Source of the DNA: a virus
Lineage: Duplodnaviria > Heunggongvirae > Uroviricota > Caudoviricetes
Direction: 5' to 3' (one strand)
DNA: 64,000 bases
IMG/VR virus record: IMGVR_UViG_3300028805_000065
Span: 74,988-138,987 of that record
Under the pieces are notes generated by a model, which saw only the letters and a list, made by a program, of their open reading frames with translations, had not been told where the DNA came from and made no database searches. Each line of letters begins with the position of its first letter. Position 1 is the stretch's first letter. Positions 6,124-39,177 of the stretch are shown here, one piece after another. A program made the position numbers and the translations under genes.

Positions 6124-7485
6124 TTATCTATTTTGATTACTATCATTATCACGGGTCTTCTCTCCAGCTTCGCCAACAGTGTCACCAGTCTCTTCGGCAG
6201 TAGGTCTGCCACCATCGTCGCCTGTAAAAGCTGATTGTGTATTACTTGATACAAGTGGCGTAGTCCAAACATTACTCGACAATCCGAGCAACTCATCCTC
6301 AAGATAAGATGCACCAATAGTTTCGCATGGTGTCAGCCCAAGAGAAGCGGCATAATCCATCTTGACAGGCAAACCATATTGTGCGCCTTTGGATAAATTA
6401 TTTTGCACCTCTGTGCTATTAAATATTGATTGATATAGAAACGACACTTTAAATAAGTAGTCGTGATTCATAAGTTTAATTTCACGATTTATTATCTTCT
6501 CAAATTGTCCAAGCAACGAAAACGACAACGCCTCATCTGGCTTAACGGCAAGAAGCATTGCGCTTGCTGTTGTAAGAGTGCCACCACCCATAAGCGTGTT
6601 TGGCATTCCAGCTGAACGCCAAAAGTTATTAACGGCAGATAAAGCCGCATCCCTGTCAGCCGTTGCGCTTTCTTGAAATGAGTGATCAGATATAGTCCAA
6701 GGCGATACAAGTAAACCAATACCATTTGGTAATTCACCAGCCATCTGATCATAATATTGTTTTACGTCTTGATACGGCATTTTTGGTATTCCGTCATCAT
6801 CAGTGTCAACTTTTGCAGACAAGGCTTTGTAATTAGAATTCTCGTCGTGTTGCGCCTGTATGTCTTGCGCATCTTTTAATCTAAGCACATCAATAATGAG
6901 ATTGCCAAAATATGGTAAAAAGTGGTAAGGGTCTGTATCATCAGCCACTAAAGCAAAACCATTTTTAAACTCATACCACATATCACTATCTGTAATTATC
7001 TTGCCATTCTTTAGTTTTTCTTTATATTTCTTATATGCTTTAGCTATATCAGAGCCATATCCATTAAGCAAACTTTCATCGCCAACAAACATTGGCAAAT
7101 AAATAGACGGTATATATATACCGTCTTCAACAGATCGTATTCTAATTCCTTTTGGTTCAAATGGCACAAAATATCCGCTTTGTGATTTACTGGCATACAC
7201 CATCACACCAACAGCAATACCATCCCTAAGAGCAATACGAATCATCTTTTCAGCTTCTCTTTTGATTCCCATTTTCTCGGCAAAGTTAACAACATCGTAA
7301 AAATTATTTTTATACTTGTTCTTTGCAATCTTTTTGGTATAAACCTTACCAGCCTTGACCGTATAATTATAAGTCAATATTTGAGAAAAATAATTAATCA
7401 ACCTCTTATAGTGAGGAGATATAATATATAGGTATCTACTCAATGCTCTAAGGCTATACTCATAAGAGTACGGGTGTAAAAACAT
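6124..7485 (-). CDS. putative portal protein (453 aa)
   Basis: Gene immediately downstream of the terminase large subunit; size and position typical of portal; acidic C-terminal tail. Confidence 0.45.
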   Translation of the reverse strand: MFLHPYSYEYSLRALSRYLYIISPHYKRLINYFSQILTYNYTVKAGKVYTKKIAKNKYKNNFYDVVNFAEKMGIKREAEKMIRIALRDGIAVGVMVYASKSQSGYFVPFEPKGIRIRSVEDGIYIPSIYLPMFVGDESLLNGYGSDIAKAYKKYKEKLKNGKIITDSDMWYEFKNGFALVADDTDPYHFLPYFGNLIIDVLRLKDAQDIQAQHDENSNYKALSAKVDTDDDGIPKMPYQDVKQYYDQMAGELPNGIGLLVSPWTISDHSFQESATADRDAALSAVNNFWRSAGMPNTLMGGGTLTTASAMLLAVKPDEALSFSLLGQFEKIINREIKLMNHDYLFKVSFLYQSIFNSTEVQNNLSKGAQYGLPVKMDYAASLGLTPCETIGASYLEDELLGLSSNVWTTPLVSSNTQSAFTGDDGGRPTAEETGDTVGEAGEKTRDNDSNQNR

Positions 7486-7658: not shown

Positions 7659-9515
7659 CTACTTTAATTTTGGACGTTTACTAAATAAGAAACTCTTATG
7701 CGATTCGTCCTCTCGCTTTTTATTAACTATCTGACTTCGCCTCATCGTAGATAAAGAATATCCAAGCATACATAATGTATACGAAGCGTCATCATGCATT
7801 TTATTTTGCTTTTCTTTTGCTAATTCATAAGTAACACCGCCATTGGCAGAATCATATCTTACAATATATGACAACTGCGTTTTGCCCAATTCAATTGTCT
7901 GGAGCGCAACTTTTTCTTCATTCGTAAGAAACACCTGTTTAAACTCGCCGTTCTTATCATTTTCATCACCAACAAGTAAATAGTCCTTACCATCATAAGA
8001 TGTAAACTTGAAAACGTTTTGCTTTATCATTTTTGCTAATGCGTCATACATTATGGTTTTCATCTTCTTCGGTTCACGCAATCTTACAATTGGTTTATTG
8101 TTTGGATATCTTTTTCTAGCGCTTTCATAGGCGCTATGTTCTGGATCTATAATGCCAATGTGTTCAACGCCTTTTTTATCTTTAAAGGGAAGTAGTAATT
8201 GGTCTGCTATAGCAGAAACACCACCACCACCACTACCAGCATCGATATTAAACTCAATAATATTCTCCCAGTCTTCGGCTTCACCATTAAAATCAATCAT
8301 CAGTTGTCTGATTATTTTTAACTGCTCAACCATATCAAGTGGTGCTTTTCTAGTAGAAGTTTTATCAACCATCTCTTTTGAATAAACAATCTTAAATATA
8401 ATATTCTTGTGAGACTTTCTATCCTTATTTGGCTCTTCAATTCTCTCGGCAATAGTAAGAACAGAACCGTCAAAATTACGAGCTGGGTCATATGAAAATA
8501 CAAACTTTCTTTTGCCAGTATCATTAAACAATACTGGTTTTCTGTATTCACTATTCCTCATAATCTCGCCCATCTCAACAAGCGCATCCTTGCCACCGCC
8601 TTGCCTAAACTTATTAAACAACTCTCTATCTGCGGCATCTGGATTGTCTTCAATATCCTTTTGAATTCGTGCCTCTGATAAATGAGATTTAATCTTGTTA
8701 CCATTAATGGTAGAATGATTTAGTACATCATATGCATCAATGTCACAAACAAAATATCTGTCATCACCTATAAGCATTTTTTCAAAAAACAATTTATATT
8801 TTTCAAAATATGGAGTATCCACTGAAGAAGCAGAAGATGTGTATAAAAGTTGAATAGGCACTTGTGGCGGTTTAGTATAGACAACACTTTGGGTTGATGT
8901 CGAGAAACTTGAATCAACGTTTGCGAAGTTTTCAATAACCGATAACGATTCCGCATCTTTCCATCCAGTTTCGTTAAACCAAACGCCACCTCTTTTACCT
9001 CTGATTGTTTCAAGGTTAGAAGAGAGGGCTTGGCACTCTGAGTTATTAAAAAGTCTAAAGTGCGCTGGTGGTGATTGAATAAAACCAGTCTCAGAGTTCG
9101 ACCCAGTTTTATCTACCTCTCTAGCAAATAAATCAGTAAGAGAAGCAAATGTGGGTATCCGCTTATAAGCAATATCACGCATTTTGTTCATTGTATCAAC
9201 AGACTGCGCATATGCATTACAAGAAATGTGTAGATGATAATCGGGTATTAGTAGCAACTTTGTCATATACATAACAGATCCTGTTGTATCTTTACCCGTA
9301 CCTCGACAGCAAAGCCACAGGCAGAAAGGTCGCCACCAACTTTCTTGGAAGATATATCTTTGAAAATCAATCATTTGAGTTCCAAAGATTTCTTCCGCAA
9401 ACCGCACAGGGTTCATGCGCCCCCAATTTGTAATATCAGCCCACTTCTGATATTCCTCAATTTTTTTCTGAGATAATTCTATCTCAGTAGGCGGTACAAA
9501 AATTTCTACACTCAA
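7659..9515 (-). CDS. terL: terminase large subunit (618 aa)
   Basis: N-terminal P-loop-like 'CCRGTGKDTTGS' ATPase motif; size; lies upstream of portal in the head module. Confidence 0.55.
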   Translation of the reverse strand: MSVEIFVPPTEIELSQKKIEEYQKWADITNWGRMNPVRFAEEIFGTQMIDFQRYIFQESWWRPFCLWLCCRGTGKDTTGSVMYMTKLLLIPDYHLHISCNAYAQSVDTMNKMRDIAYKRIPTFASLTDLFAREVDKTGSNSETGFIQSPPAHFRLFNNSECQALSSNLETIRGKRGGVWFNETGWKDAESLSVIENFANVDSSFSTSTQSVVYTKPPQVPIQLLYTSSASSVDTPYFEKYKLFFEKMLIGDDRYFVCDIDAYDVLNHSTINGNKIKSHLSEARIQKDIEDNPDAADRELFNKFRQGGGKDALVEMGEIMRNSEYRKPVLFNDTGKRKFVFSYDPARNFDGSVLTIAERIEEPNKDRKSHKNIIFKIVYSKEMVDKTSTRKAPLDMVEQLKIIRQLMIDFNGEAEDWENIIEFNIDAGSGGGGVSAIADQLLLPFKDKKGVEHIGIIDPEHSAYESARKRYPNNKPIVRLREPKKMKTIMYDALAKMIKQNVFKFTSYDGKDYLLVGDENDKNGEFKQVFLTNEEKVALQTIELGKTQLSYIVRYDSANGGVTYELAKEKQNKMHDDASYTLCMLGYSLSTMRRSQIVNKKREDESHKSFLFSKRPKLK

Positions 9516-10639
9516 TCTTTTTCACCGCCATGTTCAAGAAAGAGAACTTCATTACTAAGCTGTCTGTTCTCTTCCCGTAATCTATCTAGTTCATTCGTCA
9601 TATCTTGAATCATTTCTCGCTGATTCTTTATGACCCTAGTATAGTCGTTCTCATCAAGCTGAAGTTGTTCCATAATGCTTTGGAAACTAAGGTCAGCCGT
9701 TTGCTTAATTGATTCACAAGTCTTAATGTCGAAAAGATTTACACGAGATGGGTCAAACCCATTCTCGTACATCTCTCTAATTTTATCAGACATTGTCCCT
9801 TGCCCGGCACGTATATTTCTATTCCACTGACTTGAAATATTATTATCTTTAGCTAGATTAGTGATTGTGTCTAACGCCTGTTTTTTAGAAGCCATTAAAT
9901 TTTTTAGTCTAGCATCATCAATCTCATAATCGTTTGATATTTTATTTATTTCCTCATCAAGCTTCTTTATCTGTAAGAATGTTTTTACCATGCTTACACA
10001 ACACATCATCTTATGACCATCCTCAGAAATTCCCTCTGTATCGCAATAACCGCTTAAAGCATTATAGCAATACTTCCTATCCATAACGGTTGCCTCTATC
10101 ATATCCTCAAGAGGGTCATATCCATATGTTTCTATTACATAACGCCTGTTCTTTTCATCTTTGTCATCCCATGTGACCTCTAAAGGTTTCACAACTGGCG
10201 GAGACATTTCACCGGGTAATGTGCCATGTTTCTCAGCAATGATATTGGTTCTAGATAACTCGCCGTCAAATATGCTATCAATAAAAGTTTTATTTTTCCA
10301 TTGAGTAGTATTGTTCACAATTCTTGAATACATACCCGGAGTATATTGCTGTGCGTTTTTTGCAAGTGAAGCAAATGCGTCACTACTAAAATACCAGTCC
10401 ATATAATGACATATGACTTTCATAGCATATTCTTCCGACTTATATCTATCAGCTATAACAGACTTAAACTTATCAATACACGTTTTACAAATAGGGGCGT
10501 AACCACTATTAGCCAGCCAAAGAGGAGACTTACTTGACGACTTATAAAAATTGCCAGTCAATGCAGTATATTCCATACCACATGACACGCACTTATATAT
10601 ATTTTTGTTACTCTTCCGTGAATTCATCTTTACTGGCAT
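9512..10639 (-). CDS. hypothetical protein with N-terminal CxxC zinc finger and C-terminal coiled coil (375 aa); small terminase candidate
   Basis: Immediately upstream of terL with 4-nt overlap; 'CVSCG...C..C' motif; heptad-like C-terminus. Confidence 0.35.
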   Translation of the reverse strand: MPVKMNSRKSNKNIYKCVSCGMEYTALTGNFYKSSSKSPLWLANSGYAPICKTCIDKFKSVIADRYKSEEYAMKVICHYMDWYFSSDAFASLAKNAQQYTPGMYSRIVNNTTQWKNKTFIDSIFDGELSRTNIIAEKHGTLPGEMSPPVVKPLEVTWDDKDEKNRRYVIETYGYDPLEDMIEATVMDRKYCYNALSGYCDTEGISEDGHKMMCCVSMVKTFLQIKKLDEEINKISNDYEIDDARLKNLMASKKQALDTITNLAKDNNISSQWNRNIRAGQGTMSDKIREMYENGFDPSRVNLFDIKTCESIKQTADLSFQSIMEQLQLDENDYTRVIKNQREMIQDMTNELDRLREENRQLSNEVLFLEHGGEKD

Positions 10640-11517: not shown

Positions 11518-12753
11518 TTAACTCCTAAAATAAATCGGATAGTATGCTTTTAAACCATTGTCATCTACAACACACACAAGTTGACTTGCGTTACCACTTA
11601 ATCTTTTTTCAACAGTGAAATCATCACCACTTCCTGCAAGAGATCCACCTCTAATCATTTTCACTTTATTTACTTCATCGACTGCGATTGTGTGCAAATG
11701 ACCAGTAAACCAAGCCTCAGGAAATTCACGAATCATTGAAATTAATTTCTGTACATCTCCCTTATTGAACCCATCATAATCACCATGCGTGGCAACATAG
11801 GATTTTCCTCTAACATTAAAAAGAGCAATTGATGTATCAATATCATTCTCAATTACATGAAAGTTCTCAACGTTATAAAGGCTCAGACCAACAGCCCATG
11901 AAATTAAGTCATCAAGTCTGTCGTCGTGCATAGCATTATCTTTGTTTGGTGTCAAACGTGAATGATTGCCACTAACAGATATAAAATTTACATTATTAAA
12001 ATGCTGAGAAAGTTTATAACAAAAATTGCATATAATCTCGGTAGCAATTTTTACTTGGTCAACAACATTCTCTCTGTTAGTAACCTGAATGGTCTTGTGA
12101 ATAATACCACTGATCTGATCGCCTAAAGAAAGCACATAGCAATTCTCTGAATTATGCATCTTTTGTAATTCAATGACATTTGATAACAATTCAGACATTC
12201 TCTCAATCGCAATATCAGTATCAAATCTTCCGAACTTATTATTAAACGTAGCGCCGATATGAAGATCACTCAACAAAACAATAATATCGTTATCGGATGT
12301 AAATGTGTCTACATGATGATTTGGAAATTGTATATTTCCAATAGATACAAGAGAGTCAGAGAGTTTATCCAACATATCCTCGGCTCGTGCGTCGGCATAA
12401 TTCTGCTTACTCCAAGCACGTCTCTCATCTCTTAACTTTACCTTTTCGCGTTCTGCCTCTCTTTTAGATGCATTAAGTTTATTAAGATATTCATCTTCAC
12501 TAAACTTGTTGAAGACACCGCTTTCGTAAAACTTCTTTGCCTGTTCATATGGTTTACGATATGCGCTTGAGGTTCTGTATTCAGACTCGTCGCTCCTGAA
12601 ATAAAAGTTTATCAGATAAGCAATGTCATCCCATGTGCCATCATAATTACCATTATCTTTAGCCTGACCAATAGACCAAAGATAGGAGAGTTCACCTTGC
12701 CCCTCTATGGGCTTTGTGTCAAACACGGTTTTTTCTCCTTGCCAAATCCTCAC
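11518..12753 (-). CDS. calcineurin-like metallophosphoesterase (411 aa)
   Basis: Ordered motifs: 'LSDLHIG' (D-x-H), 'GDQISG' (GDxxD), 'GNHS' (GNH), 'THGDY', 'GHLH' (GHxH); N-terminal coiled-coil region. Confidence 0.6.
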   Translation of the reverse strand: MRIWQGEKTVFDTKPIEGQGELSYLWSIGQAKDNGNYDGTWDDIAYLINFYFRSDESEYRTSSAYRKPYEQAKKFYESGVFNKFSEDEYLNKLNASKREAEREKVKLRDERRAWSKQNYADARAEDMLDKLSDSLVSIGNIQFPNHHVDTFTSDNDIIVLLSDLHIGATFNNKFGRFDTDIAIERMSELLSNVIELQKMHNSENCYVLSLGDQISGIIHKTIQVTNRENVVDQVKIATEIICNFCYKLSQHFNNVNFISVSGNHSRLTPNKDNAMHDDRLDDLISWAVGLSLYNVENFHVIENDIDTSIALFNVRGKSYVATHGDYDGFNKGDVQKLISMIREFPEAWFTGHLHTIAVDEVNKVKMIRGGSLAGSGDDFTVEKRLSGNASQLVCVVDDNGLKAYYPIYFRS

Positions 12754-13003: not shown

Positions 13004-13123
13004 ATAACGACCTATCGGGGTAATGCTCCCCGTTCTCCGCCGTGACAGGGCGGTGTAATACCTTTTATACTAATAAGCCACAATAAAAGAGAGGAATAAT
13101 TAACCCCTCTCTTGATATATAAA

Positions 13124-14761: not shown

Positions 14762-15118
14762 TCGATAATTTCCTTTCTTAAAAATAAGTTGATATATCCA
14801 CTAAACTTTGCGCAAAGTTAGTATCATAAAACTTAATCCTTGAATTCAGAAATTATCCTTTTATTCTTTTTTAAAAAAACTAAGGCAGAGCCGTAGCCCT
14901 GCCATTACAAAAACTAAAAAGTTTATTAATTATTAATTGAGATATTATAAACGTCCGTCGCAATTAATCGGACTCAGCCTAATCCCACACAAGGATAAGT
15001 AGGTAATCAAATCAAATGCCTTTCGCAATTAAGGTTTTTGGGACGCATCCCTACTCACCACACATTCCTAAAAATGCTGTCTTTCACCGCCAGTCCGCAA
15101 ACCTCGGTGGGCGCTATA

Positions 15119-16474: not shown

Positions 16475-16922
16475 AAAGCAAGACTACATAACAGCGTAGA
16501 GGGTCACCATGAGCCGTCATATACTAAACTACCAACCTATAACCTACGATTTTAGTATTCAATATCAATTAACAAATAACCAGTAAACAATAATTAAATA
16601 ATACTCATTAATTATTAATTAATACTCAGTAAGCATTAAGCAATACTCAATCCCCCATATCAATCCAATAATCTTGTATTCGGCTTCTTCTAAGCATGTA
16701 TTATTCCGATACAAGATTTAGATTTTCTCATCCTACACGAGAAATCTTGTATTATTTAATAGCAGTGATTTCTTTTATTATTTAACAGCGTTCTAATCAC
16801 TAAAAAGAGTCGTTGAGATATGGTTTGTGGTTTTCGTTATGCAGTCAAAAATGTTATTGGTTGTGCCTCGATGAGGGCTGTTAAGAAACTAGCATCGATA
16901 TTTTGACAACCATTAAAGTCAA

Positions 16923-17756: not shown

Positions 17757-20420
17757 TCAACAAAAATTGGATAAAAACTTTGTGCTATCTGTCTTATAAA
17801 GTAAATTAAGTATCTTTATTCCATACTTCCTTGCAGACTTAATTGCGGCATTTTTATAATTGCCACTAATATTTAAACCTAACGAATACTCTATAAGTTT
17901 GTTTATTGTTGCTGGGTTCTTTGTTCTTATCTTCCCAATTTCGTCTGAATAATATTTTGCCTTTAGAGATAATTGCTCTTTAAAATTATCATCTACAGAA
18001 TATACTGGTTTTGTTACGGTTTGAATCCAATCATCATATTCCTTTGCAAGTGTTATTATCTTTGATACATGCCTATATTCTGGTTTACCATTTATCTTTA
18101 TAAAAAACTTCTCAGTAGGTATCGTATTTGTACTTGATATATTCTGAATTTTATCAAGCCTTTCCTCAACCCAATTCATCGGACAGATGAGAGACGGATC
18201 TACTCTGTCTCTTAACTTTTTCTTGCTTCTATTAATTTCAGAAAATGGCAACTCTTTACCGTTCTTTGTGTACGGGATTGGACGTGTATACTTCATAAAA
18301 AGTGGGAAGTCATATTTCTTTTCCTTTAAAGCCCCGTCCTCAAATGTCATAATAGTCCTATGCATACAATCTTGTTGACCAATGCGCTTAATTTCATCCA
18401 TTCCAGAAATTTCGTACTCTCTCTTGCACCCATCGATTATCAGCTGTGCTACAACAGATAGCACAATAAAATCATCTTCTAATTGAAGCGACAGTCTTTC
18501 ATCACGCTCATCGTCTTCCTTTTGCATTTCTGTAAAGAAATAAGATATGGCAAGCATTGCAAGATTTGAACTCCATCCTATTCCAAGCCTTGCCTTACTC
18601 ATTTTATTATCCATCTCTGCGTATGCTTCTGGTGTATTGTCGTAAGATATACCGCTTTCGTTAAGAGCATTGACAATAGTTGGAAATCTCTTATAACATC
18701 TTTTTGCACATTCAACCATTACAGGATGGTTTGTTGCAAGAATAAAATCAGAATCAAAATCAGCACCATTCAATCTAGATTGAACGTCAGTACCAATGCA
18801 ATTTATCGCAACAATATTTTTAGAAAAATCAAAATACTTTTCCATTAAAGGGTGATGTACATTATGAAGATATGCCACGTTATTCATAGAGTTGTTTGGA
18901 GATCTGAAACCGCAAATATATTCACCGTCATCAAATCTTTTGGTATAACATTGAATTGTATCACGCTCTTGTATAAGCGTTTTATCCTTAGTCCAATCAT
19001 CACCAACTGCATGGAGTAGAAGAGCATATGGATTGCCACACAATGTAAGGTTATCGCCATTAACAAAAATTTTACCTTGTCTTAACTTGCCAACGTATGA
19101 GTTTATAATTTTTCTCTTTTCAAGTCTAAACCAAGTTGACTCACCAAACTCATGGTTATGATTGTACAAGTCTGCCATCATTTCATAATGATTCACATCG
19201 TTAGCATTTTTTCTTAAGAACTTTTCAAACTCATCGTTGTCTCTTTTTAAAAGTTCAACATACTCAACGCTGTCTTTGCATATCTCATTTATTTCTTCCT
19301 GAGTGGCTGGTAGCACATTAAGCATTTGATAACTCAGTTGCTGTTGATTACCTAATTTAGATGGATGGTCTGTTTTAACAACGCCCCACAAGCATCCATC
19401 TTTTCTAACTATTTTTGCCCAATAAGAATAAGGATTTCTTCCCATTAAATCAGAAAACTTTCGCCACTTAATAGCATTCTCTGTTGTTATGGCTTTGATA
19501 TTTTTTAATAACTTCTTTTTGCCAAAATAGTCTGTTACCTCATACGTATCGTAGTCATAACCATTTTTATCACACCAGTCTTTGAAAAACTTTTTGATAT
19601 GTGTTCTAAAGAAACACGCTTTAAAGAAATGATTTCTTAATAGCACCATGCCGTTAACATAAGATGGGAGAATAGAAGATTCGATAAGACCTTGACCGTC
19701 AAACAGTGTATTCTTTACATCCGTTTTTTCTCTATCAACAACGCACATCTTTTTCGTTTCGCCGTTGTCGTCTGTGTATTCCTCTGCGCGAACAATGTTT
19801 GCCATTGTTGTATAAAAACTATCCACGTCAGATACAAATAATATGTCGTCAACATCTATGTGTATTCTATCAATTATTGTTGACGTTGTGAGTGGGGCAT
19901 AAGCAGACATCTCAACGATTTTTGCGTTATGCAACGGCATCTTTTTTCCAAGCCCCATCGTTAACCATTTATACGCCCTATCATATAACTTCTCATCTAT
20001 AAACATTACAGAACCAATTTTAGCTTTTGCAGGAGTTCTAAACAACATCTTATAATGAATTTTCTGTGAAGACTTTATTGAACCATCTTTATTTTTGGTT
20101 TCCCATAAAATATCAACGCCCTCTTTATAATATTTAGTTCTGATATCGTCTCTGGACATTGGCGCATATTTTTCTTTATTGGCTTCTACTAATGCGAGTT
20201 TAGTTTTAAGACGCTCCACTAAATCAACGTTGTCGTCTTCAACTGCTTTATCAATCAGCATTGTGAGTCTCTTATGTTCATCTTCATAAGAACGGCTTCC
20301 AAAATCAAACGATAGACAAATAATCGATCTAGTGGACTCGCCTTTGTAAACATCTAAGCCGTGGTCTTTCATGTAATAAAGAAACAGGCTGTTGTTCAAC
20401 ATTGCATCTGTATAAGTCAA
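17757..20420 (-). CDS. putative YonO-like single-subunit RNA polymerase (887 aa) with a DxDxD 'NGADFDSD' catalytic-type motif
   Basis: Motif GIGTDVQSRLNGADFDSDFILATNHP (DFDSD encoded at 18747-18761) resembles the universal beta-prime NADFDGD Mg-binding loop retained in YonO-type, crAss-type and killer-plasmid single-chain RNAPs; size matches YonO (about 840 aa); no P-loop or polymerase A/B-family motifs. Confidence 0.45.
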   Translation of the reverse strand: MTYTDAMLNNSLFLYYMKDHGLDVYKGESTRSIICLSFDFGSRSYEDEHKRLTMLIDKAVEDDNVDLVERLKTKLALVEANKEKYAPMSRDDIRTKYYKEGVDILWETKNKDGSIKSSQKIHYKMLFRTPAKAKIGSVMFIDEKLYDRAYKWLTMGLGKKMPLHNAKIVEMSAYAPLTTSTIIDRIHIDVDDILFVSDVDSFYTTMANIVRAEEYTDDNGETKKMCVVDREKTDVKNTLFDGQGLIESSILPSYVNGMVLLRNHFFKACFFRTHIKKFFKDWCDKNGYDYDTYEVTDYFGKKKLLKNIKAITTENAIKWRKFSDLMGRNPYSYWAKIVRKDGCLWGVVKTDHPSKLGNQQQLSYQMLNVLPATQEEINEICKDSVEYVELLKRDNDEFEKFLRKNANDVNHYEMMADLYNHNHEFGESTWFRLEKRKIINSYVGKLRQGKIFVNGDNLTLCGNPYALLLHAVGDDWTKDKTLIQERDTIQCYTKRFDDGEYICGFRSPNNSMNNVAYLHNVHHPLMEKYFDFSKNIVAINCIGTDVQSRLNGADFDSDFILATNHPVMVECAKRCYKRFPTIVNALNESGISYDNTPEAYAEMDNKMSKARLGIGWSSNLAMLAISYFFTEMQKEDDERDERLSLQLEDDFIVLSVVAQLIIDGCKREYEISGMDEIKRIGQQDCMHRTIMTFEDGALKEKKYDFPLFMKYTRPIPYTKNGKELPFSEINRSKKKLRDRVDPSLICPMNWVEERLDKIQNISSTNTIPTEKFFIKINGKPEYRHVSKIITLAKEYDDWIQTVTKPVYSVDDNFKEQLSLKAKYYSDEIGKIRTKNPATINKLIEYSLGLNISGNYKNAAIKSARKYGIKILNLLYKTDSTKFLSNFC

Positions 20421-26915: not shown

Positions 26916-28166
26916 TCAGTCATCGCATGAATTTTTCTCAATCCAGTTTTCAAGCAACTCCCTCATCCTTTTAGAGGGTATGTATAATGTTATCGGTTCG
27001 TCATTTCTTATTGCCGATCTCCAGATGCACTGAATCATTTCCGATAAAGCAAACAGATCCTCGTTTGGTTCAATTCCTTTACTCCTAAAGAACTGCATTA
27101 TGTTTGTGTTGACGAATCTGTTGACGACATATGCCACAACATTTCTGTCCGCATAATTATTTGATGCTCTTGTGTTTGGTACGATATAACCACTTGAATA
27201 TCCCTTGCCACTCAACCTTTCTTTCGATTGCTTGAATGCCGCCCACAAACATTTAGACGACTTAGCTTTGGTGATGTTCTGAAAATAATTGTGTAAATTA
27301 CTTTTGACCTTTTCTATACCACTCTTATTTGATTCTCTGCCGTACCAGCTATATGAAAGACTGTAGTTGTCGTCGCCAATGGCGTTCATCTTATCGTTAT
27401 GAATAATATTGATAAGTTTCCTATAGTTTTTCTTTGTCTTATTCTCTTTTGATTTGTCGGCGGTAAGGGTAAAATCCGATGTATTGTTCCCAGTAATATA
27501 AAGGTTGGTATAATTCAAGCCAAAGTATTTGAAATAACACGACATGAAAGATCCCTCAAACAAATACGTCAAAACATAAAGTTCTTTAAAACACGTCAAA
27601 ATCTTTAAAGGAAAAATCCGTATCATAACACCGCCGTTGTAATATGCAAGTTCGCCGTTATCGGCTAATTCTTTTTGTGGCGTAAAAACACCCCAGTACT
27701 TATCATCTCTCCATTTAATAAGCCCGGAGTTTTCATCAACATCTACATAGGCTTTTAGCAGTGCGGCTGTGTCGTAAGTATTAAGTCCGTCTTCTCCGTC
27801 AAACTCATAAGAGTTCGCACAGTCTATAGTCTCATCGATGAAGCATATGTACCCAAACGACTTTATCAACTCGATCTCGGCATCAGTAAATTTCGCAAAC
27901 AGTTGATGTGTCGTGACGATGTTCTTTCCCTCTTCCAGTAAAGAATGAAGTCCATTCAGTTTTCTGCCCTCTTTGTAAAAAGGTTTCATAACACTCTTTG
28001 TGCTACATGAATCTTTTATTCTGTCTACCTCAGACAAATAGGGGGCTACATACATAAAGCGCACTGAGTCTGGTAATGAGTTAATGTAGTTAATGGCACT
28101 GGTTGTTTTGCCACTACCCATGACCGAATCAACAACATAGTATTTGCAATCAGTTACTTCATCCAA
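26916..28166 (-). CDS. P-loop NTPase (416 aa), possible helicase- or replication-associated ATPase
   Basis: Walker A 'VMGSGKTTSA' at residue 16 and Walker B 'ICFIDE'; first gene leftward of the origin-like control region. Confidence 0.5.
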   Translation of the reverse strand: MDEVTDCKYYVVDSVMGSGKTTSAINYINSLPDSVRFMYVAPYLSEVDRIKDSCSTKSVMKPFYKEGRKLNGLHSLLEEGKNIVTTHQLFAKFTDAEIELIKSFGYICFIDETIDCANSYEFDGEDGLNTYDTAALLKAYVDVDENSGLIKWRDDKYWGVFTPQKELADNGELAYYNGGVMIRIFPLKILTCFKELYVLTYLFEGSFMSCYFKYFGLNYTNLYITGNNTSDFTLTADKSKENKTKKNYRKLINIIHNDKMNAIGDDNYSLSYSWYGRESNKSGIEKVKSNLHNYFQNITKAKSSKCLWAAFKQSKERLSGKGYSSGYIVPNTRASNNYADRNVVAYVVNRFVNTNIMQFFRSKGIEPNEDLFALSEMIQCIWRSAIRNDEPITLYIPSKRMRELLENWIEKNSCDD

Positions 28167-31136: not shown

Positions 31137-31165
31137 TTGACACACCTAACAAGGTGTGGTAGGAT
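31137..31165 (+). promoter_or_regulatory. sigma-70-type promoter (TTGACA, 17 nt, TAGGAT; TGn extended) with spacer inverted repeat CACACCT/AGGTGTG
   Basis: Consensus -35 and a 17-nt spacer; first promoter of the rightward block, 40 nt upstream of the 31205 gene. Confidence 0.5.
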
Positions 31166-31204
31166 ACAGTTACATCAAACAAGCCACTTTATAGGAGGTA
31201 CGAA

Positions 31205-32044
31205 ATGCCTAAATATTCAAGGGACGAGCGTAAAGCTTATTACGCTGAAAATCCGTATACCGTAGTAAAGGGTAGCAATGGCTTTGCTGCTGTTGACCCT
31301 AAAACAGTTCGAAATGACCGTCTTAATTTTTCCGATGGTAACGAAAAAGTCGGACGTGTCGGATGTTTCAACCTTCCCGTAGCATATAGTTGTGTGCATG
31401 ACTGTGAGTGCTATCTGAATGGTGACTGTTATGCGTGTGGCGGTTGCTACAATTTCGCCGACAATCAAGCGATGTATTCAGAGAATTTTGCATACATTGT
31501 ATCCCATAGCATTGATGATTTTGTCAATACCGTAGTAGATGAGATCTATTACCGTGGATGGGGTCTCTTTAGATGGTTCACATGTGGGGATATCCTCAGT
31601 GTATCCATGTTTGACGGCATGGTTCAAATTGCGAAAAGATGTCCCGCCATCACTTTTTGGTTCTATACCAAAAAGTATAGGATGGTTAACGCATGGGTAT
31701 CCGCTCACGGCGTTGACGCTCTCCCCGACAACTTAACAATCATTTTCAGTCACTGGCGTAATAGGGATGGATCTTTTTATCCCATGCCTAACCCCTACAA
31801 TTTCCCGACATCCGAGTTTATCCCTGTCGGACATGAGGAGGAGGCTAAATTTGTGACACATGTTTGCCCTTGCAGTGACCCCGATGTTGTCAGCACTTGC
31901 GAAACCTGTGAACATCCCTGTTTCAAGCTCAAAAGGGGCGAGAGCATGGCACTGTTAGAGCATTCCACAAAAGCCACAAAAGAGCGTGATAAGGCACTCA
32001 AACAGGCTAAAAAGGCGCTCAAAAAAGCGAAAAAGAGCGCATGA
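31205..32044 (+). CDS. Cys-rich protein (279 aa) with a lysine-rich C-terminal tail
   Basis: Clusters 'CVHDCECYLNGDCYACGGCY' and 'CPCSDPDVVSTCETCEHPC'; KKALKKAKKSA tail; first early gene next to the origin-like region. Confidence 0.45.
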   Translation: MPKYSRDERKAYYAENPYTVVKGSNGFAAVDPKTVRNDRLNFSDGNEKVGRVGCFNLPVAYSCVHDCECYLNGDCYACGGCYNFADNQAMYSENFAYIVSHSIDDFVNTVVDEIYYRGWGLFRWFTCGDILSVSMFDGMVQIAKRCPAITFWFYTKKYRMVNAWVSAHGVDALPDNLTIIFSHWRNRDGSFYPMPNPYNFPTSEFIPVGHEEEAKFVTHVCPCSDPDVVSTCETCEHPCFKLKRGESMALLEHSTKATKERDKALKQAKKALKKAKKSA

Positions 32045-32201
32045 CATAACAGGCAATGCATGGTTGCATATAGGCTTATGGTCTATAGGTGGTTCGATTC
32101 CACCAACTGCCATTCTCTGTTAGGGGCTGACGCCTGACGGTGCGGTTTCTGACATGAAACGACACACTATAACTATACCCAAATAACAAGTGAGGTGCAA
32201 T

Positions 32202-32363
32202 ATGAGATGGTATACTATTTTAGATGACTTTCAAGACAATGGAGATGGTGCGGAAGAATGGGATGATGCCGTGCGTGGTGCAAACGCAATAGGCTCAAAC
32301 GTCATTATCGATGACATGAACCATGTATATTACAGAGTTGGCGATAATTGGGTAGAATTCTAA
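32202..32363 (+). CDS. small acidic protein (53 aa)
   Basis: ATG preceded by GAGGTG; not in the ORF track (below 60 aa). Confidence 0.3.
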   Translation: MRWYTILDDFQDNGDGAEEWDDAVRGANAIGSNVIIDDMNHVYYRVGDNWVEF

Positions 32364-32533
32364 AAGGGGTAAAATATGGCATACGTTGATTTTGTCAGAC
32401 ATGACGGAGAGAAGCAATTCTGCAAAAAGTGGTAAAAGAGAAAAGGGGTGATAGATTATCTAAGCCCCCCGGCGGAGGTCGAGAGGCTTAGGTGATACCA
32501 TCAACCACACAACAGGAAAGAGAGGAAAAGGAA

Positions 32534-32734
32534 ATGAGAACGGATTTTTATCAGCATGTTTATGATGTAGTGGAAGATGCACTGACGGAAGCGCTCATTA
32601 AATTGCAGACGGAAAATGGAATCACTGACGGCGGATGTGATCCGCTTGTATCTCATCAGTATGATGAGGCACTGGAAGACATGGCGGAAGCGGTCAGACT
32701 GGTTATCGAGAATCAGAGAGGTGGAAAGAGATGA
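32534..32734 (+). CDS. small acidic protein (66 aa)
   Basis: ATG with an AGAGGAAAAGG RBS; the track ORF starts at an upstream GTG. Confidence 0.35.
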   Translation: MRTDFYQHVYDVVEDALTEALIKLQTENGITDGGCDPLVSHQYDEALEDMAEAVRLVIENQRGGKR

Positions 32735-33054
32735 TGAGGAAAGCACTGATAGGAATCGGAATGACGGCACTTGTTGCCGTCTCAGGAATCAGAGTAGGTT
32801 CTGCGGAAGTAGAACCGAATCTGTACCCCACAGTGGGGTATGTGACGGAAGTAGACACGGAATCGGATACCGTCACATGGAACGACGGATGGAACGACTG
32901 GACGTTCTACGGAGTGGAAGACTGGATGGTTGGCGATGGAATCGCCGTCATCATGTCGGACGAGGGAACGGAATCTGTCAAGGATGACAGAATGGTGGAA
33001 GCTAGATACTGGAATCCCGATACGGTCACGTTGGGATACTGGGGGGAAAAATAA
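32731..33054 (+). CDS. small secreted protein (107 aa) with an N-terminal signal peptide
   Basis: 'MMRKALIGIGMTALVAVSGIRVGSAE' is signal-peptide-like; ATGA overlap with the upstream gene. Confidence 0.45.
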   Translation: MMRKALIGIGMTALVAVSGIRVGSAEVEPNLYPTVGYVTEVDTESDTVTWNDGWNDWTFYGVEDWMVGDGIAVIMSDEGTESVKDDRMVEARYWNPDTVTLGYWGEK

Positions 33055-33057
33055 TTG

Positions 33058-33086
33058 TTGACAAGCCACTGGAACGGTGGTAAGAT
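33058..33086 (+). promoter_or_regulatory. sigma-70-type promoter (TTGACA, 17 nt, TAAGAT) with spacer inverted repeat CCAC...GTGG
   Basis: Same architecture as the other early promoters; variant spacer sequence CCACTGGAACGGTGG shared with 33903. Confidence 0.45.
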
Positions 33087-33131
33087 AAAGAGGAATCAAA
33101 GGTAAGTGCTACCTAGAATGGAGGAATCAAA

Positions 33132-33326
33132 ATGACACTTAAGGAATTAAAGAGGGGCGATATGTTCACACTGAAAGATATTGAATTCCCTAGGGAATCG
33201 CAAGTTTACATCAGAGGGGAATACGACAGGGGAAGCAAGACGTACTCTTGCATCAAGTGGAATGATGTGAACAAAGAGATCTTCCGCAAGGGAACGACAA
33301 AAGTTTATACGGAATTCACGTTCTAA
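33132..33326 (+). CDS. hypothetical protein (64 aa)
   Basis: ORF with a GGAGGAA RBS. Confidence 0.4.
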   Translation: MTLKELKRGDMFTLKDIEFPRESQVYIRGEYDRGSKTYSCIKWNDVNKEIFRKGTTKVYTEFTF

Positions 33327-33438
33327 CTTGTCGATTGATGAGCGCTCACTACGGAATTGAGATGGTAGGGGGCGCTGATGAGCCGACAGGCTGACGGAAA
33401 CAAGAAACCCAACAACAAGAGGAAGAGGAAGCGGAATT

Positions 33439-33822
33439 ATGAAAGTTAAACTGGAAGACGGATACAGAGGAAAGTATACACTGGATGACCTCGACATGGC
33501 AAAAGCCGTGATCACTGCGGAAAAAGAGGACGAGCTATCCGCCAAGGAATGGGCAGAATACGCAGTCAAAGAGGCTCTGAGGAACGAGGATGGATACCCT
33601 GTAGAAGTCCTAAAAGCGGAAGCAAGGACAGCAAGGAACTGCCGTATCAATTGGAATCGATATGGAGAGGGGACAGGAATGATGGATGTATGGATTTCCT
33701 TTGTTGCGGAAACAACAGAGGGGTTCATCAAAGGCGGAGCGTATCTGTCCGACATATGGGATACAGGAAGCACGGAATATAAACAGCATATGTACATCAG
33801 ATGGGCGGACTGGACTGACTGA
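33439..33822 (+). CDS. hypothetical protein (127 aa)
   Basis: ORF with the leader motif AACCCAACAACAAGAGGAAG upstream. Confidence 0.45.
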   Translation: MKVKLEDGYRGKYTLDDLDMAKAVITAEKEDELSAKEWAEYAVKEALRNEDGYPVEVLKAEARTARNCRINWNRYGEGTGMMDVWISFVAETTEGFIKGGAYLSDIWDTGSTEYKQHMYIRWADWTD

Positions 33823-33902
33823 AGAGAATCGGATCAGCCCTCTAGGGAATCAGCTTAGAGGGCTGAACGGAATAACGACAGAACCTGGTCTAAAATTCGT
33901 TC

Positions 33903-33931
33903 TTGACATACCACTGGAACGGTGGTAAGAT
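33903..33931 (+). promoter_or_regulatory. sigma-70-type promoter (TTGACA, 17 nt, TAAGAT) with CCACTGGAACGGTGG in the spacer
   Basis: Near-duplicate of the 33058 promoter. Confidence 0.45.
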
Positions 33932-33974
33932 GAAGAGGAAGTAAAGGGAAGCACCACTAAAAGGGGGCAGAATT

Positions 33975-34145
33975 ATGATGACAATCTACACATTCGAAAC
34001 GGTTGCAGATAATTGGAGTGACTACGGAAGCACACACTTCAACGTCATCGCTTCATCGGAACGAGAGGCTTGGAAAAAAGCCTGTGAAATTGAACACAGG
34101 GAGAACATCATCGGAATCATCCGATACAGGGTGATTGGGTTCTAA
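33975..34145 (+). CDS. small protein (56 aa)
   Basis: ATG after a GGGGGCAG RBS; below the track threshold. Confidence 0.3.
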   Translation: MMTIYTFETVADNWSDYGSTHFNVIASSEREAWKKACEIEHRENIIGIIRYRVIGF

Positions 34146-34161
34146 TGGAAAGGAGAATGGA

Positions 34162-34476
34162 ATGTACATCGTATATCACGGATGGATTGATGGAGAGCCT
34201 GTAGGGGAATTCAGAACGGTGAAAAGTGCGGTCAAATATATAGAGTCACAGGAATACCCCGAGGAATACTGCTTTGAGAAGAAAACCCACCGCAACAACG
34301 TTTTGCGTGGAATGGAAACTGGAAAAATGTGCATTTGTGAATACTGCTATAACGAATTAAGAAGCAGAGGGGAACGAGTCAAAATCATCGACAGATATGC
34401 AGTGGACATCTCAGAGGAACGGAGATGTGATCTCTGCGAGGAAGTAGATGACCTGATGGAAGTGGAAACGAGGTGA
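34162..34476 (+). CDS. zinc-ribbon protein (104 aa)
   Basis: 'CICEYCYNE...CDLCEE' double CxxC; start set at the ATG after AAGGAG. Confidence 0.4.
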   Translation: MYIVYHGWIDGEPVGEFRTVKSAVKYIESQEYPEEYCFEKKTHRNNVLRGMETGKMCICEYCYNELRSRGERVKIIDRYAVDISEERRCDLCEEVDDLMEVETR

Positions 34477-34571
34477 TGCATCAGCTTCAGCATTTCGATA
34501 GGAATCGGAGTGCTGAGACAGGGATATCACCCGGAACGGAAACCCAATAACAAGAGGAAGAGAGGAACAAG

Positions 34572-34814
34572 ATGGAAGTAAAGGTAAAAGATTTTATGCG
34601 CTTATGCGGAATAAAAGAAGAAAAGGTCATGTTCTATGAATGTGACACGATGGAAACAATCATCGTCCCTGTGGCTGATCTGTTCGACATCGTCAGACTT
34701 CCGCACACGGACATCTACAACGTCAGAGCGGAATACGCCGACATCATGGAAGCGGAAATTGCTTCTTGGGAATATGATGAGAGCGGAATCCTTTGCATCT
34801 TATATTTCACATGA
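34572..34814 (+). CDS. hypothetical protein (80 aa)
   Basis: ORF with the leader motif AACCCAATAACAAGAGGAAG upstream. Confidence 0.4.
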   Translation: MEVKVKDFMRLCGIKEEKVMFYECDTMETIIVPVADLFDIVRLPHTDIYNVRAEYADIMEAEIASWEYDESGILCILYFT

Positions 34815-34829
34815 CAGGGGGAACGAGGA

Positions 34830-35135
34830 ATGAGAAGAGAGTTTGCTACGGCAGATGGAAGTTACGAGGGAAGACTGGTTGTTTATAGGTTGGAATTCTT
34901 CTATATCGCTACAAAGGAAAAGGTAATAGCCGATGAGTGGGAAGTCGAAGACTGGAGATATCCCGAACTGACGGCGGTCGATTGCATGGTGTCCGATGGA
35001 TATGACTTTGAACAGTCGGATCTGGACAGCGGAATTATTGTGACGCTGTTCATTGAGGAAAAGCCTGTAAGCTGTGTCGTATGGCACGGATACGGAATGG
35101 AAAACATTGATGAGATTTTTGAGGTGGAAAGATGA
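34830..35135 (+). CDS. hypothetical protein (101 aa)
   Basis: ORF with RBS. Confidence 0.4.
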   Translation: MRREFATADGSYEGRLVVYRLEFFYIATKEKVIADEWEVEDWRYPELTAVDCMVSDGYDFEQSDLDSGIIVTLFIEEKPVSCVVWHGYGMENIDEIFEVER

Positions 35136-35449
35136 GATTGGAAGTGTTTGAAAACTATCATTATGGGATGGAGCTGGCTGTGTTTAGCGGAAGCGATGTA
35201 GTCGCAATCCTTTATACTTTTGAGGAAAACGACATCAACAATGCAATCAATGAACTTGCGGAAAACAACATGGCGTATCTTGGGTGGAATGATTACTGCT
35301 ATCACACGGAGAATGTGGTGGAAGCAACAATCGAAAAGTATGATGATGACGGAAACCCTGTCGATATCACGGAGCATCCGTGGACTCTTCAAGAGTTGTA
35401 CGATGACTTGTGGGAATATTCGGAACTAATAAAGGAAGTTTATATATAA
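35132..35449 (+). CDS. hypothetical acidic protein (105 aa)
   Basis: ATGA-coupled ORF. Confidence 0.4.
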   Translation: MRLEVFENYHYGMELAVFSGSDVVAILYTFEENDINNAINELAENNMAYLGWNDYCYHTENVVEATIEKYDDDGNPVDITEHPWTLQELYDDLWEYSELIKEVYI

Positions 35450-35472
35450 GTAATATCTGATTGGAGAGTGCA

Positions 35473-35844
35473 ATGTACGGAGTTAGAAGCTTTTACAAGG
35501 GAAAGATGACAGAGAAGTGGTATGATTCGGAAAGTGATGCAAGGTCAGAGGAATCTGAGATGGATGGAAACGTCTTTCTGTTGCGTGGAAATAGCGGAGC
35601 TTTTGACGTAATCGACACCTTAAAGGAATGCCGTTTTGTGGTAGGAAAAGAATATGCATTCCGTCAGTATGGAGTCGGAGATGTTGGCAGAGCAAGACTG
35701 ATCACTCTACAGGGTGACGATGCCTATATCAACGTGACGGAAGCCAGTGACGAAGCCCTGATAGGGTGGAAGCGTGGCAAGCTGATAGGCGGAACGATTG
35801 CAAGTAAGAGAGGGCTTGTACTGTACGCAAGTAACCCGGTTTGA
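35473..35844 (+). CDS. hypothetical protein (123 aa)
   Basis: ATG after a GGAGAG RBS (the track begins at an upstream TTG). Confidence 0.4.
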   Translation: MYGVRSFYKGKMTEKWYDSESDARSEESEMDGNVFLLRGNSGAFDVIDTLKECRFVVGKEYAFRQYGVGDVGRARLITLQGDDAYINVTEASDEALIGWKRGKLIGGTIASKRGLVLYASNPV

Positions 35845-35866
35845 TGGAAAGATATGAGGTGACAAA

Positions 35867-36058
35867 ATGAACATGACTGTATTGGAAATCATCGAGGTTT
35901 TTGAGGACTTTTTGAAAGACAGGGGAATTAGAATCCCCACATCCGATGTAGAGATGGAAGCGGATGACGCTTTAGAGGGGAACGATGCCCTTATTTACGG
36001 AAGCGATTTCTGCGAGTTAGAGGAAGCAATCAGCAGTTGTTTGGAGATAAGGGGGTAA
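35867..36058 (+). CDS. small acidic protein (63 aa)
   Basis: ORF. Confidence 0.35.
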   Translation: MNMTVLEIIEVFEDFLKDRGIRIPTSDVEMEADDALEGNDALIYGSDFCELEEAISSCLEIRG

Positions 36059-36064
36059 TAGAAT

Positions 36065-36205
36065 ATGAGGCAGATCAGCGTATACGATACGGAAGCGGAA
36101 GCCATTGAGCGCATCTGCGAAGACAATGATGTAACTGAAGCGGAACTGATTGAGGAACTGATGGATTACATCGAAGACGTAAAGGCTTTTCATAGTTGGA
36201 AATAA
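36065..36205 (+). CDS. small acidic protein (46 aa)
   Basis: ATG after an AGGGGG RBS; frame verified codon by codon. Confidence 0.3.
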   Translation: MRQISVYDTEAEAIERICEDNDVTEAELIEELMDYIEDVKAFHSWK

Positions 36206-36229
36206 AACCTGGATTTGTGTAAAAAAGTG

Positions 36230-36258
36230 TTGACAATCCACCTAATAGGTGGTATCAT
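36230..36258 (+). promoter_or_regulatory. consensus early promoter TTGACA-N17-TATCAT (TGg extended -10) with a CCACCTAATAGGTGG operator-like inverted repeat
   Basis: Member of the repeated promoter family; conserved leader ATTAAAGAGAAGTAAGGAACTG follows. Confidence 0.6.
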
Positions 36259-36324
36259 TAAAGAGAAGTAAGGAACTGACTCCGAATAGCATGGAGTCAA
36301 CCCAAATAATGAGAGGAGACTGAT

Positions 36325-36486
36325 ATGGGATACCTTTATGAGAAACAGGATTTTCACGGTTGGACGGAAGACAAAGCATGGGTAACGAAAGATGGAAGAG
36401 TGGAATTCGATGACGGATCTGTTATGGAATTCGCAACGGTCGATGAGGCAGAGGACTGGCTTTACGAGAGGGGATATAGAATATGA
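36325..36486 (+). CDS. small protein (53 aa)
   Basis: ATG after a GAGAGGAG RBS; ATGA overlap with the next gene. Confidence 0.35.
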   Translation: MGYLYEKQDFHGWTEDKAWVTKDGRVEFDDGSVMEFATVDEAEDWLYERGYRI

Positions 36487-36785
36487 GGTATTATAAGGTT
36501 TATAGGAAGTGTTGCAGAGTGGCAAAAAGCGTAGAGGAACTCTCGTGGGAAGAGTTTGACCAGTCCGTCTGGAATGAGGCGTGGGAAGATGCTTACGTCA
36601 CTACGGAGCAGAGAGATGACGAGGAAGACGATGAGTGGCTTGACAAGGTGGAAAGCCGTGCCACAAGTGTACTTGACAAATACTTTGAACAGGCAGAAAC
36701 GGAGAGCGGACTTTGTGCCGGAGATTTCTATCTATACGTAAGGGGTGATGATACGCATCCGTGGGATATGAAAAGACCTGATTAA
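36483..36785 (+). CDS. hypothetical acidic protein (100 aa)
   Basis: ORF. Confidence 0.4.
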   Translation: MRYYKVYRKCCRVAKSVEELSWEEFDQSVWNEAWEDAYVTTEQRDDEEDDEWLDKVESRATSVLDKYFEQAETESGLCAGDFYLYVRGDDTHPWDMKRPD

Positions 36786-36800
36786 AAAGCAAAAAAACTG

Positions 36801-36829
36801 TTGACATGCCACTTAATAGGTGGTATCAT
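36801..36829 (+). promoter_or_regulatory. consensus early promoter TTGACA-N17-TATCAT with a CCACTTAATAGGTGG inverted repeat
   Basis: Same family; leader ATATAAGAGAAGTAAGGAACTG. Confidence 0.6.
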
Positions 36830-36951
36830 ATAAGAGAAGTAAGGAACTGGTATCACTGATTGAGTGCTTCAGCCTTGAGGAAGTTGAAGCACTGAGACGG
36901 GGAATCAGCCCTACAGAAACAACAAACCCAATAACAAGAGGAGATCTGAAA

Positions 36952-37308: not shown

Positions 37309-37315
37309 TAACAGA

Positions 37316-37534
37316 ATGAGAATCGTTTATTTGTTTGACATCACATTTGAGTACAGGGATGAGTTTAAAGAACATTTTGGAGATGGAACTTTCGTTCACG
37401 GCTTCTACAGTAAGTCGGCTGATCCAAAGAACATCAGAGCCGTAGCAAACAGATACATGAAGAAGCATCACATCCCGGCACGAATCGTCAGTGTCGGAGA
37501 GCCACAGATGAAGCTTCAGGTTCGATGCAGATAG
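37316..37534 (+). CDS. small basic protein (72 aa)
   Basis: ATG after an AGAGGGGG RBS. Confidence 0.4.
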   Translation: MRIVYLFDITFEYRDEFKEHFGDGTFVHGFYSKSADPKNIRAVANRYMKKHHIPARIVSVGEPQMKLQVRCR

Positions 37535-37543
37535 GGGGTAAGC

Positions 37544-37843: not shown

Positions 37844-37853
37844 GGAGTAAAAC

Positions 37854-39167: not shown

Positions 39168-39177
39168 GGAGAATAAA

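Follow-up and report, generated by a model that had tools for sequence, protein, structure and literature searches.

The window analysed here, a 64,000-nucleotide stretch of a tailed-phage genome (Caudoviricetes; positions 74,988 to 138,987 of IMG/VR record IMGVR_UViG_3300028805_000065), is organized into two gene blocks, a leftward one running from 28166 to 1 and a rightward one starting at about 29 kb, and the guanine-cytosine skew agrees with this division. The minus strand carries, as the initial annotation had it, an open reading frame (ORF) of 887 amino acids (aa) counted from a TTG codon (Table 1). This gene likely encodes a catalytically competent, single-polypeptide RNA polymerase (RNAP) of the YonO family of two-barrel enzymes, in a temperate, distantly SPβ-like phage whose hosts are gut Clostridia, probably Lachnospiraceae. 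Tests of sequence, active site and fold support its placement in both the YonO family and the two-barrel superfamily. YonO of the Bacillus subtilis prophage SPβ, described by Forrest et al. in 2017, is a processive DNA-dependent RNAP that transcribes the SPβ late genes as one operon (PMC5467207), and "YonO-like" proteins were discussed by Ruprich-Robert and Thuriaux in 2010 (PMC2919709).

Table 1 Positions of the polymerase gene, its motifs and the associated features in the window.
Feature	Position	Strand	Evidence or remark
YonO-family single-chain two-barrel RNA polymerase gene	17757..20420	-	887 aa from TTG start
Putative N-terminal extension of the polymerase ORF, 26 codons	20421..20498	-	Starts at ATA 20498-20496; inferred only
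β/Rpb2-like barrel signature D241-G242 ... R262-x4-K267	19620..19700	-	Invariant in 94/94; aligns with YonO D249, R266, K271
β'/Rpb1-like barrel R506-S-P508	18897..18905	-	94/94; aligns with YonO R492/P494; equivalent to Rpb1 R446/P448 and QDE-1 R962/P964
Catalytic Mg-binding loop D554-F-D556-S-D558	18747..18761	-	Aligns with YonO D535/D537/D539
Family-invariant D663-x-x-K666 at the end of a long helix (residues 641-663)	18423..18434	-	Aligns with YonO D625/K628
YonV homolog, P-loop protein, first gene of the leftward block	26916..28166	-	40% identity over 413 aa to SPβ YonV, E 5e-96
AT-rich noncoding gap 3' of the polymerase/211-aa pair, before tRNA-Trp and tRNA-Met	16476..16922	-	No ORF
YonJ-like metallophosphoesterase exonuclease	11518..12753	-	BLASTP to SPβ YonJ E 8e-20; PHROG 284 exonuclease E 1e-62
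YonG-like protein directly upstream of the terminase gene	9512..10639	-	Syntenic 375-aa gene of relative L006 carries PF27269 (YonG_N)
Terminase large subunit, late module	7659..9515	-	PHROG 2, E 4.5e-19
Portal protein, late module	6124..7485	-	PHROG 2739, E 2.7e-79
12 near-identical host-type extended -10 promoters	31137..50124	+	Drive the rightward, early-type block

The initial annotation rested on a DFDSD loop, which indeed occupies residues 554-558 within the sequence LNGADFDSDF and is the single DxDxD occurrence in the protein. Because the protein is rich in aspartate (8.1% D) and 35% of composition-preserving shuffles contain a bare DxDxD, such a motif is weak evidence; the extended pattern [NG][AG]DFDxD is found in a fraction of 5e-5 of the same shuffles. 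The DFDSD motif alone is thus a reasonable lead, short of proof. A motif check revealed no P-loop, and the protein matched none of the Pfam polymerase families, in line with the earlier statement that motifs of A- or B-family DNA polymerases and T7-like RNAPs are lacking. Its length is also close to that of YonO (839 aa), as had been pointed out.

Homology to YonO, which the initial annotation expected to be recoverable by profile methods, was found by profile-profile comparison, while searches of Pfam and of PDB sequences returned nothing useful. Neither the single 887-aa sequence nor the family profile gave any relevant match in Pfam, NCBIfam or the PDB sequences; the sole Pfam match at E ≤ 1 was a spurious TPR_17, and no QDE-1 or RDR chain was retrieved at E ≤ 10 in the PDB profile search. 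Authentic YonO is likewise without a match in Pfam or NCBIfam, so these libraries hold no model of the family, and their silence is uninformative and does not count against the assignment. The only family matched by the protein was PHROG 8308 (E 3e-96), labelled "unknown function". tblastn against phage genomes retrieved homologs in human-faecal phage contigs, in six Enterocloster phages and in the Spbetavirus BUCT082. In pairwise comparisons, the BUCT082 ORF was matched at E 5e-13 with GADFDSD aligned to GSDFDYD, and the ORF of Enterocloster phage PMBT24 at E 1e-25 with GADFDSD aligned to GCDFDGD. At E about 3e-14, the BUCT082 ORF in turn matches genes annotated as yonO in SPβ, phi3T and the Goe phages, a part of them under the label "DNA-directed RNA polymerase". 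With authentic yonO taken from SPBc2, a 12-sequence profile of close relatives matched YonO alone with 95.2% probability (E 2.7e-8, 377 columns) and placed DFDSD on the DNDGD of YonO. When a 94-sequence family profile, with members 26-90% identical to the query, was compared by hhalign with an alignment of YonO, BUCT082 and PMBT24, the probability rose to 100% (E 4.6e-42, 513 columns). The wider family comprises about 1,500 clusters at 50% identity, almost all of whose members are unannotated, and the homologs are named "hypothetical protein" at NCBI. YonO-like proteins are reportedly also treated by Iyer et al. (2003).

The window protein and YonO are both single chains of about 840-920 aa, with profile homology over about 510 residues and four motifs (DG, R-x4-K, R-x-P and DxDxD) in the same order. 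They differ in the metal-binding loop, which is DFDSD here and DNDGD in YonO, and in the C-terminal third of the window protein (after about residue 690), which does not align. Eight residues are invariant across all two-barrel RNA polymerases, namely D709, R738, K743, R962, P964, D1007, D1009 and D1011 in QDE-1, and D837, K979 and K987 of Rpb2 with R446, P448, D479, D481 and D483 of Rpb1 in RNA polymerase II (PMC2919709). All eight are present in the window protein, as D241, R262, K267, R506, P508, D554, D556 and D558, in the same order as in QDE-1 and with identical R-x4-K and R-x-P spacing. Seven of them are invariant in all 94 family members and the eighth, D554, in 93 of 94; the aligned YonO counterparts are D249, R266, K271, R492, P494 and D535/D537/D539. 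Replacement of the aspartate triad of YonO by asparagine (3D>3N) yields a catalytically dead enzyme (PMC5467207). From the alignment, D241 is predicted to be the fourth metal-binding aspartate, and R262 and K267 the basic residues contacting the nucleoside triphosphate (NTP). The YonO residues D625 and K628, with which the invariant D663 and K666 of the window protein align, are also invariant in the alignment of YonO, BUCT082 and PMBT24.

The serine that replaces the glycine of the canonical NADFDGD loop had been regarded as an unusual variant. It is instead the norm of the clade: position 557 is serine in 81 of the 94 members, threonine in five, glycine in four, alanine in two and leucine in two, and the equivalent position of BUCT082 is tyrosine. 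The loss of this glycine, together with the very low identity to characterized enzymes, could be taken to mean that the protein is a degenerate or repurposed relic that performs no catalysis and has a structural or regulatory role. We regard this as highly improbable, given that all eight catalytic-site residues are conserved among 94 proteins as little as 26% and at most 90% identical to the query, which argues for purifying selection on the active site. Moreover, conservation extends to the serine, and DxDxD is all that defines other active two-barrel enzymes of phages (PMC10770324).

The structural comparison that the initial annotation had proposed pointed the same way. An AlphaFold2 model built from the 94-sequence alignment had a mean predicted local distance difference test score (pLDDT) of 93.1 and a predicted template modelling score (pTM) of 0.91. 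Foldseek returned 21 significant matches in the PDB, all of them QDE-1 or RDR2 chains, with E values of 4e-12 to 7e-8 and template modelling scores (TM) of 0.41-0.44 over 790-930 columns; matches to Rpb1/β' were marginal (E 0.026-1, TM 0.07). The best match in BFVD was a gut-virome protein labelled "RNA dependent RNA polymerase" (TM 0.77, E 5e-48), and further matches there included protein A7KVB1 of Bacillus phage 0305φ8-36 and crAss-type polymerases. Strong structural matches were thus limited to QDE-1, RDR2 and phage two-barrel RNAPs, and the predicted model appears to adopt the fold of the solved superfamily members, with its pair of double-psi beta-barrels. T7-like RNAPs, family A and B DNA polymerases and primase-polymerases were absent both from the Pfam matches and from the significant structural matches, and no similarity to a nuclease fold emerged in place of the two-barrel one. 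None of the results that the initial annotation had named as grounds for refutation was seen.

Resemblance to QDE-1 (2J7N, 7Y7P-T) and RDR2 (7W82/7W84, 7ROZ, 7EU1) is structural only, with about 10-12% identity, and the eukaryotic role of these enzymes in double-stranded RNA synthesis is not expected for the window protein. Even so, the fact that the closest solved structures are eukaryotic RNA-dependent RNA polymerases (RdRPs) raises the question of whether the protein copies or amplifies RNA, in double-stranded-RNA or RNA-based regulation, instead of transcribing phage DNA. Such a role was speculated on for YonO-like proteins in a 2010 review (PMC2919709), and the label "RNA-dependent RNA polymerase" is attached to several homologs, in PMBT24, Thomasclavelia phages, Psychrobacillus phage Perkons and gut-virome entries. 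These labels, however, seem to have been carried over from QDE-1 and RDR by automated or HHpred-based naming, and the PMBT24 paper reports no experiment on its homolog. The sole characterized family member, YonO, is a DNA-dependent RNAP for late genes (PMC5467207), and QDE-1 itself is described as both DNA- and RNA-dependent (PMC9508822). In addition, the protein matches neither the Pfam RdRP family (PF05183) nor any other Pfam model, and the conserved place of its gene beside the packaging and structural module fits a transcriptase. A role as an RNA-copying enzyme is therefore very unlikely in our judgement.

The multisubunit β' and β subunits share the double-psi barrels and the NADFDGD-like loop (NGADFDSD here), and the R-x-P upstream of the loop presumably resembles the β' NRAPTLH motif. 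Unlike them, the window protein is a single chain of about one quarter of their size in which the invariant glycine is replaced by serine, and it shows no significant sequence match, no global structural match and no Pfam RNA_pol_Rpb1 match to them. No sequence similarity was detectable to the non-virion RNAP of phages P23-45 and P74-26 (gp64 and gp62, respectively), to P23-45 gp96, a virion RNAP fused to the tape measure, or to the virion RNAP gp66 of the crAss-like phage phi14:2. These phage enzymes transcribe early or pre-early genes, and gp96 and gp66 are delivered with the virion; nothing suggests virion packaging here.

The genomic setting of the polymerase gene parallels that of yonO, although not in the way first described, since the gene does not head the leftward block but lies 7.7 kb inside it. 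The block starts at 28166 with the YonV homolog, whose orthologs in relatives L004 and L006 carry PF27199 (YonV_C), and about 14 more leftward ORFs follow before the polymerase gene. These ORFs are mostly small and include an HNH endonuclease and a radical-SAM-like "Fe-S oxidoreductase" (24167-24976 and 22125-23054, respectively, both on the minus strand); in L004, a 58% relative, a single 62-aa gene lies between YonV and the polymerase, and the HNH endonuclease and radical-SAM-like genes look like lineage-specific insertions. The polymerase gene is followed, in order, by a gene for a 211-aa protein, tRNA-Trp, tRNA-Met, several uncharacterized genes and two tRNAs, and then by the YonJ-like exonuclease, a weak HU-like protein, the YonG-like protein, the large terminase, the portal and capsid-region genes, all leftward.

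This succession recalls the order yonO-yonN(HU)-yonK-yonJ-...-yonG-terminase in SPBc2/SPβ and polymerase-...-HU-...-terminase in PMBT24, and contigs with the 58% and 90% relatives show the order YonV_C ... polymerase ... Metallophos ... YonG_N. As in SPβ, a polymerase gene of a Firmicutes phage or prophage is thus linked with YonV, YonJ and YonG homologs, and precedes the packaging and structural genes in the same orientation. The YonG assignment rests on the ortholog in L006, where the DNA of this region is 88% identical, because the BLASTP match to the more distant L004 YonG-like protein is marginal (E 0.004); the window copy has no direct Pfam match. Differences from SPβ are that yonV is divergent there and co-oriented here, that tRNA and extra genes separate the polymerase from the exonuclease here, and that the hosts are gut Clostridia and not Bacillus. 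Moreover, none of the small ORFs that lie upstream of the exonuclease proved to be a YonK homolog, and the 111-aa HU-like protein gave only sub-threshold HU matches and no BLASTP similarity to YonN. Relatives at 50-58% identity reside inside Lachnospiraceae genomes, including those of cultured Eisenbergiella strains and a complete 7.3-Mb chromosome; among the cultured carriers are Eisenbergiella tayi DSM 26961, Eisenbergiella porci WCA-389-WT-23B and Lachnospiraceae bacterium CE91-St56. The lineage is therefore temperate, which fits the presence of an integrase-family gene at 46252-47247.

The 211-aa gene, which matches PHROG 1491 ("tail fiber protein"), and the noncoding gap that follows it form a block of about 900 bp (16549-17450) with 96-100% identity to L006. 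Identity to L006 drops to 67-85% in the 3' third of the adjacent polymerase gene, a pattern of mosaic recombination whose breakpoint lies near the polymerase C-terminus. The gap at 16549-16922 (97-100% identical to L006) was considered as a selected noncoding element and rejected, because the adjoining 211-aa gene is 96-99% identical as well.

The contrast in promoters between the two blocks, which had been reported before, is real: 12 promoters of the form TTGAC[AT]-N15-TGnTAnnnT, near-identical to one another and of the TTGACA-N15-TGGTAxxxT type, were found between 31137 and 50096 on the plus strand of the window and none on its minus strand. Generic σ70-like sites in the 10-30 kb region were no more frequent than in shuffles (74 observed, 82 expected). 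A palindrome of the CCACCTAATAGGTGG type is conserved in the spacers of the 12 promoters and resembles an operator contained in each early promoter, perhaps for a phage repressor or shut-off factor.

In SPβ, the late operon of structural and lysis genes starts downstream of yonO-yonN, and deletion of yonO silences exactly these genes (PMC5467207). A phage polymerase is therefore a plausible explanation of the promoter contrast in the window, and by this analogy a late-transcriptase role of the window polymerase would be well founded. Published primers bracket the SPβ start site, P_YonO, about 300-480 nt after yonN (about 8905-9097 of L003). The AT-rich gap downstream of the polymerase/211-aa pair occupies an analogous position, and it may, speculatively, serve as the late promoter and leader site; no promoter motif was established in it. 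Three copies of TGAGTATT lie exactly 21 bp apart at 16600-16649 (minus strand), and the window as a whole contains ten copies against 3.6 expected. An inverted repeat that resembles a hairpin, ATACAAGATTT ... AAATCTTGTAT, lies just upstream of this triplet (about 16716-16759). No motif common to the bracketed P_YonO region and the window could be defined. A block of the GGGCAAAA type, conserved 3' of the polymerase gene in two relatives, was discarded as a candidate, being present 13 times in the window against 9.5 expected.

Several observations weigh against a late-transcribing YonO-type enzyme. Over the core, the protein shares only roughly 19-28% of its residues with YonO. No recurring late-promoter motif was found in the leftward intergenic regions, so that no candidate can be defined, and the exact k-mers common to 13 of these regions were only words resembling ribosome-binding sites and A/T runs; the SPβ YonO promoter is itself undefined (PMC5467207). 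The polymerase gene and about 15 genes upstream of it in the leftward block are without a recognizable host-type promoter. Terminator-like hairpins lie between the polymerase and the structural genes, at 14903..14884 and 13113..13087 (minus strand). Finally, a phage sigma factor could be encoded elsewhere in the genome, outside the 64-kb window, as PMBT24 is annotated with one.

The last points leave room for an active YonO-type polymerase with a narrower purpose, such as the synthesis of a few transcripts, of tRNA or leader RNAs, or replication priming, with the late genes transcribed by host RNAP redirected by a phage sigma factor or activator. The missing phage-polymerase promoter motif and the coexistence of a YonO-like protein and an annotated sigma factor in PMBT24 would agree with such an arrangement, and promoters of an alternative sigma factor would be missed by a σ70 consensus scan. 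In the window, the N-terminus of a 569-aa ORF (50445-52154) was matched by Sigma70_r2 at E 0.0016 and by a PHROG sigma factor at E 1e-5. The former match is below the Pfam threshold, however, and the protein is mainly a GmrSD/DUF262-type nuclease, so it was not accepted as a sigma factor. Since the genes silenced by the yonO deletion in SPβ are precisely the late ones (PMC5467207), and the gene order here parallels that of SPβ, we consider this alternative unlikely, if less easily dismissed than an RNA-copying or inactive protein.

For the favoured YonO-type late transcriptase, the conserved active site suggests a mechanism in which two double-psi beta-barrels would face each other. The β'-like barrel would provide D554, D556 and D558 to hold the catalytic Mg2+, plus R506 positioned by P508, and the β-like barrel would provide D241 for the second metal, with R262 and K267 contacting the RNA 3' end and the incoming NTP. 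On the model of SPβ YonO, from which we infer the enzymatic activity, the DNA-template specificity and the set of genes transcribed, the host polymerase would first transcribe the rightward block from the 12 strong σA-type promoters, and would also have to make the first polymerase mRNA. The phage enzyme would then transcribe the promoter-poor leftward block from a point 3' of its own gene, covering the exonuclease, terminase, portal and capsid-region genes, probably in one or a few long, processive units.

It is also conceivable, though we hold it to be improbable, that the Ser-loop (DxDSD) clade, which is abundant in gut phages and prophages, forms a functionally distinct YonO-like branch. 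In one version, the enzyme could be a self-sufficient polymerase that uses an unseen promoter class to transcribe the whole 28-kb leftward block, including its own gene, in an autocatalytic or virion-delivered mode. In the other, the change from glycine to serine could have altered the metal or template chemistry. Either version, if true, would provide a compact new orthogonal transcription system and a tractable minimal model of promoter recognition by two-barrel enzymes.

As a member of the already known YonO type, the polymerase leaves the understanding of how such enzymes work unchanged. Nevertheless, no smaller relatives of cellular RNA polymerase are known than the enzymes of this type, of which a single one has been studied, and the large, deeply diverged Ser-loop branch is widespread in phages and prophages of human-gut Clostridia. 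The comparison corrects the annotation of this clade, whose members are labelled "hypothetical" or, probably wrongly, "RNA-dependent RNA polymerase" in databases, and gives mutagenesis a starting point in a structural model of high confidence and an active site defined as eight residues. In addition, the juxtaposition of a 12-promoter block with a promoter-free block makes this phage a good system for finding a YonO-type promoter.

The annotated TTG start at 20420 is probably wrong, and the true start would be the ATA codon at 20498. The in-frame peptide directly upstream of the TTG, ISEYGLKIRNISAGILYDYNLGLREY, matches the N-termini of homologs (MSEFGIKIKNISAGMLYDVNLGIRDYF), and the ATA is preceded by a GAGGAG Shine-Dalgarno sequence and overlaps the TAA stop of the upstream gene (as ATAA). 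The same ATA arrangement is found at the start of the polymerase gene in L006. If this start is used, the protein has 913 aa and the residue numbers given here shift by +26. Related contigs also show N-termini truncated by gene callers, as in P0001, which begins at an internal methionine.

Degenerate direct and inverted repeats crowd the 860-nt divergent region between the two blocks (28167-29023), which may be a regulatory switch or origin. Among them are two 40-nt copies that surround palindromes of the GACGTAAGTCGT/GACGTGAGTCATC type, and the core (T)ATCGA(T/C)A occurs several times.

In the rightward block, the twelfth early-type promoter (50096) lies directly upstream of the gene for the 569-aa protein on the plus strand, whose N-terminal GmrSD/DUF262 nuclease domain was matched at E 2e-10 and whose N-terminus bears the sub-threshold similarity to sigma-70 region 2. 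Nine to ten tRNA genes occur in the window in two clusters, one on the minus strand (12929-13079 and 16205-16475) and the other on the plus strand (55432-56522). They include a tRNA-Ile(UAU), a 106-nt Rfam tRNA match at 56227-56332, a tRNA-like gene at 55920-55992 for which ARAGORN calls a 4-base anticodon (ggcg), and a tRNA at 13008-13079 that was detected by Rfam and not by ARAGORN. About 1.9 kb upstream of the plus-strand cluster, a gene at 52341-53573 on the same strand specifies an RNA ligase that combines PF09414 with an OB-fold domain, and its closeness to the tRNA genes suggests tRNA repair against host anticodon nucleases.

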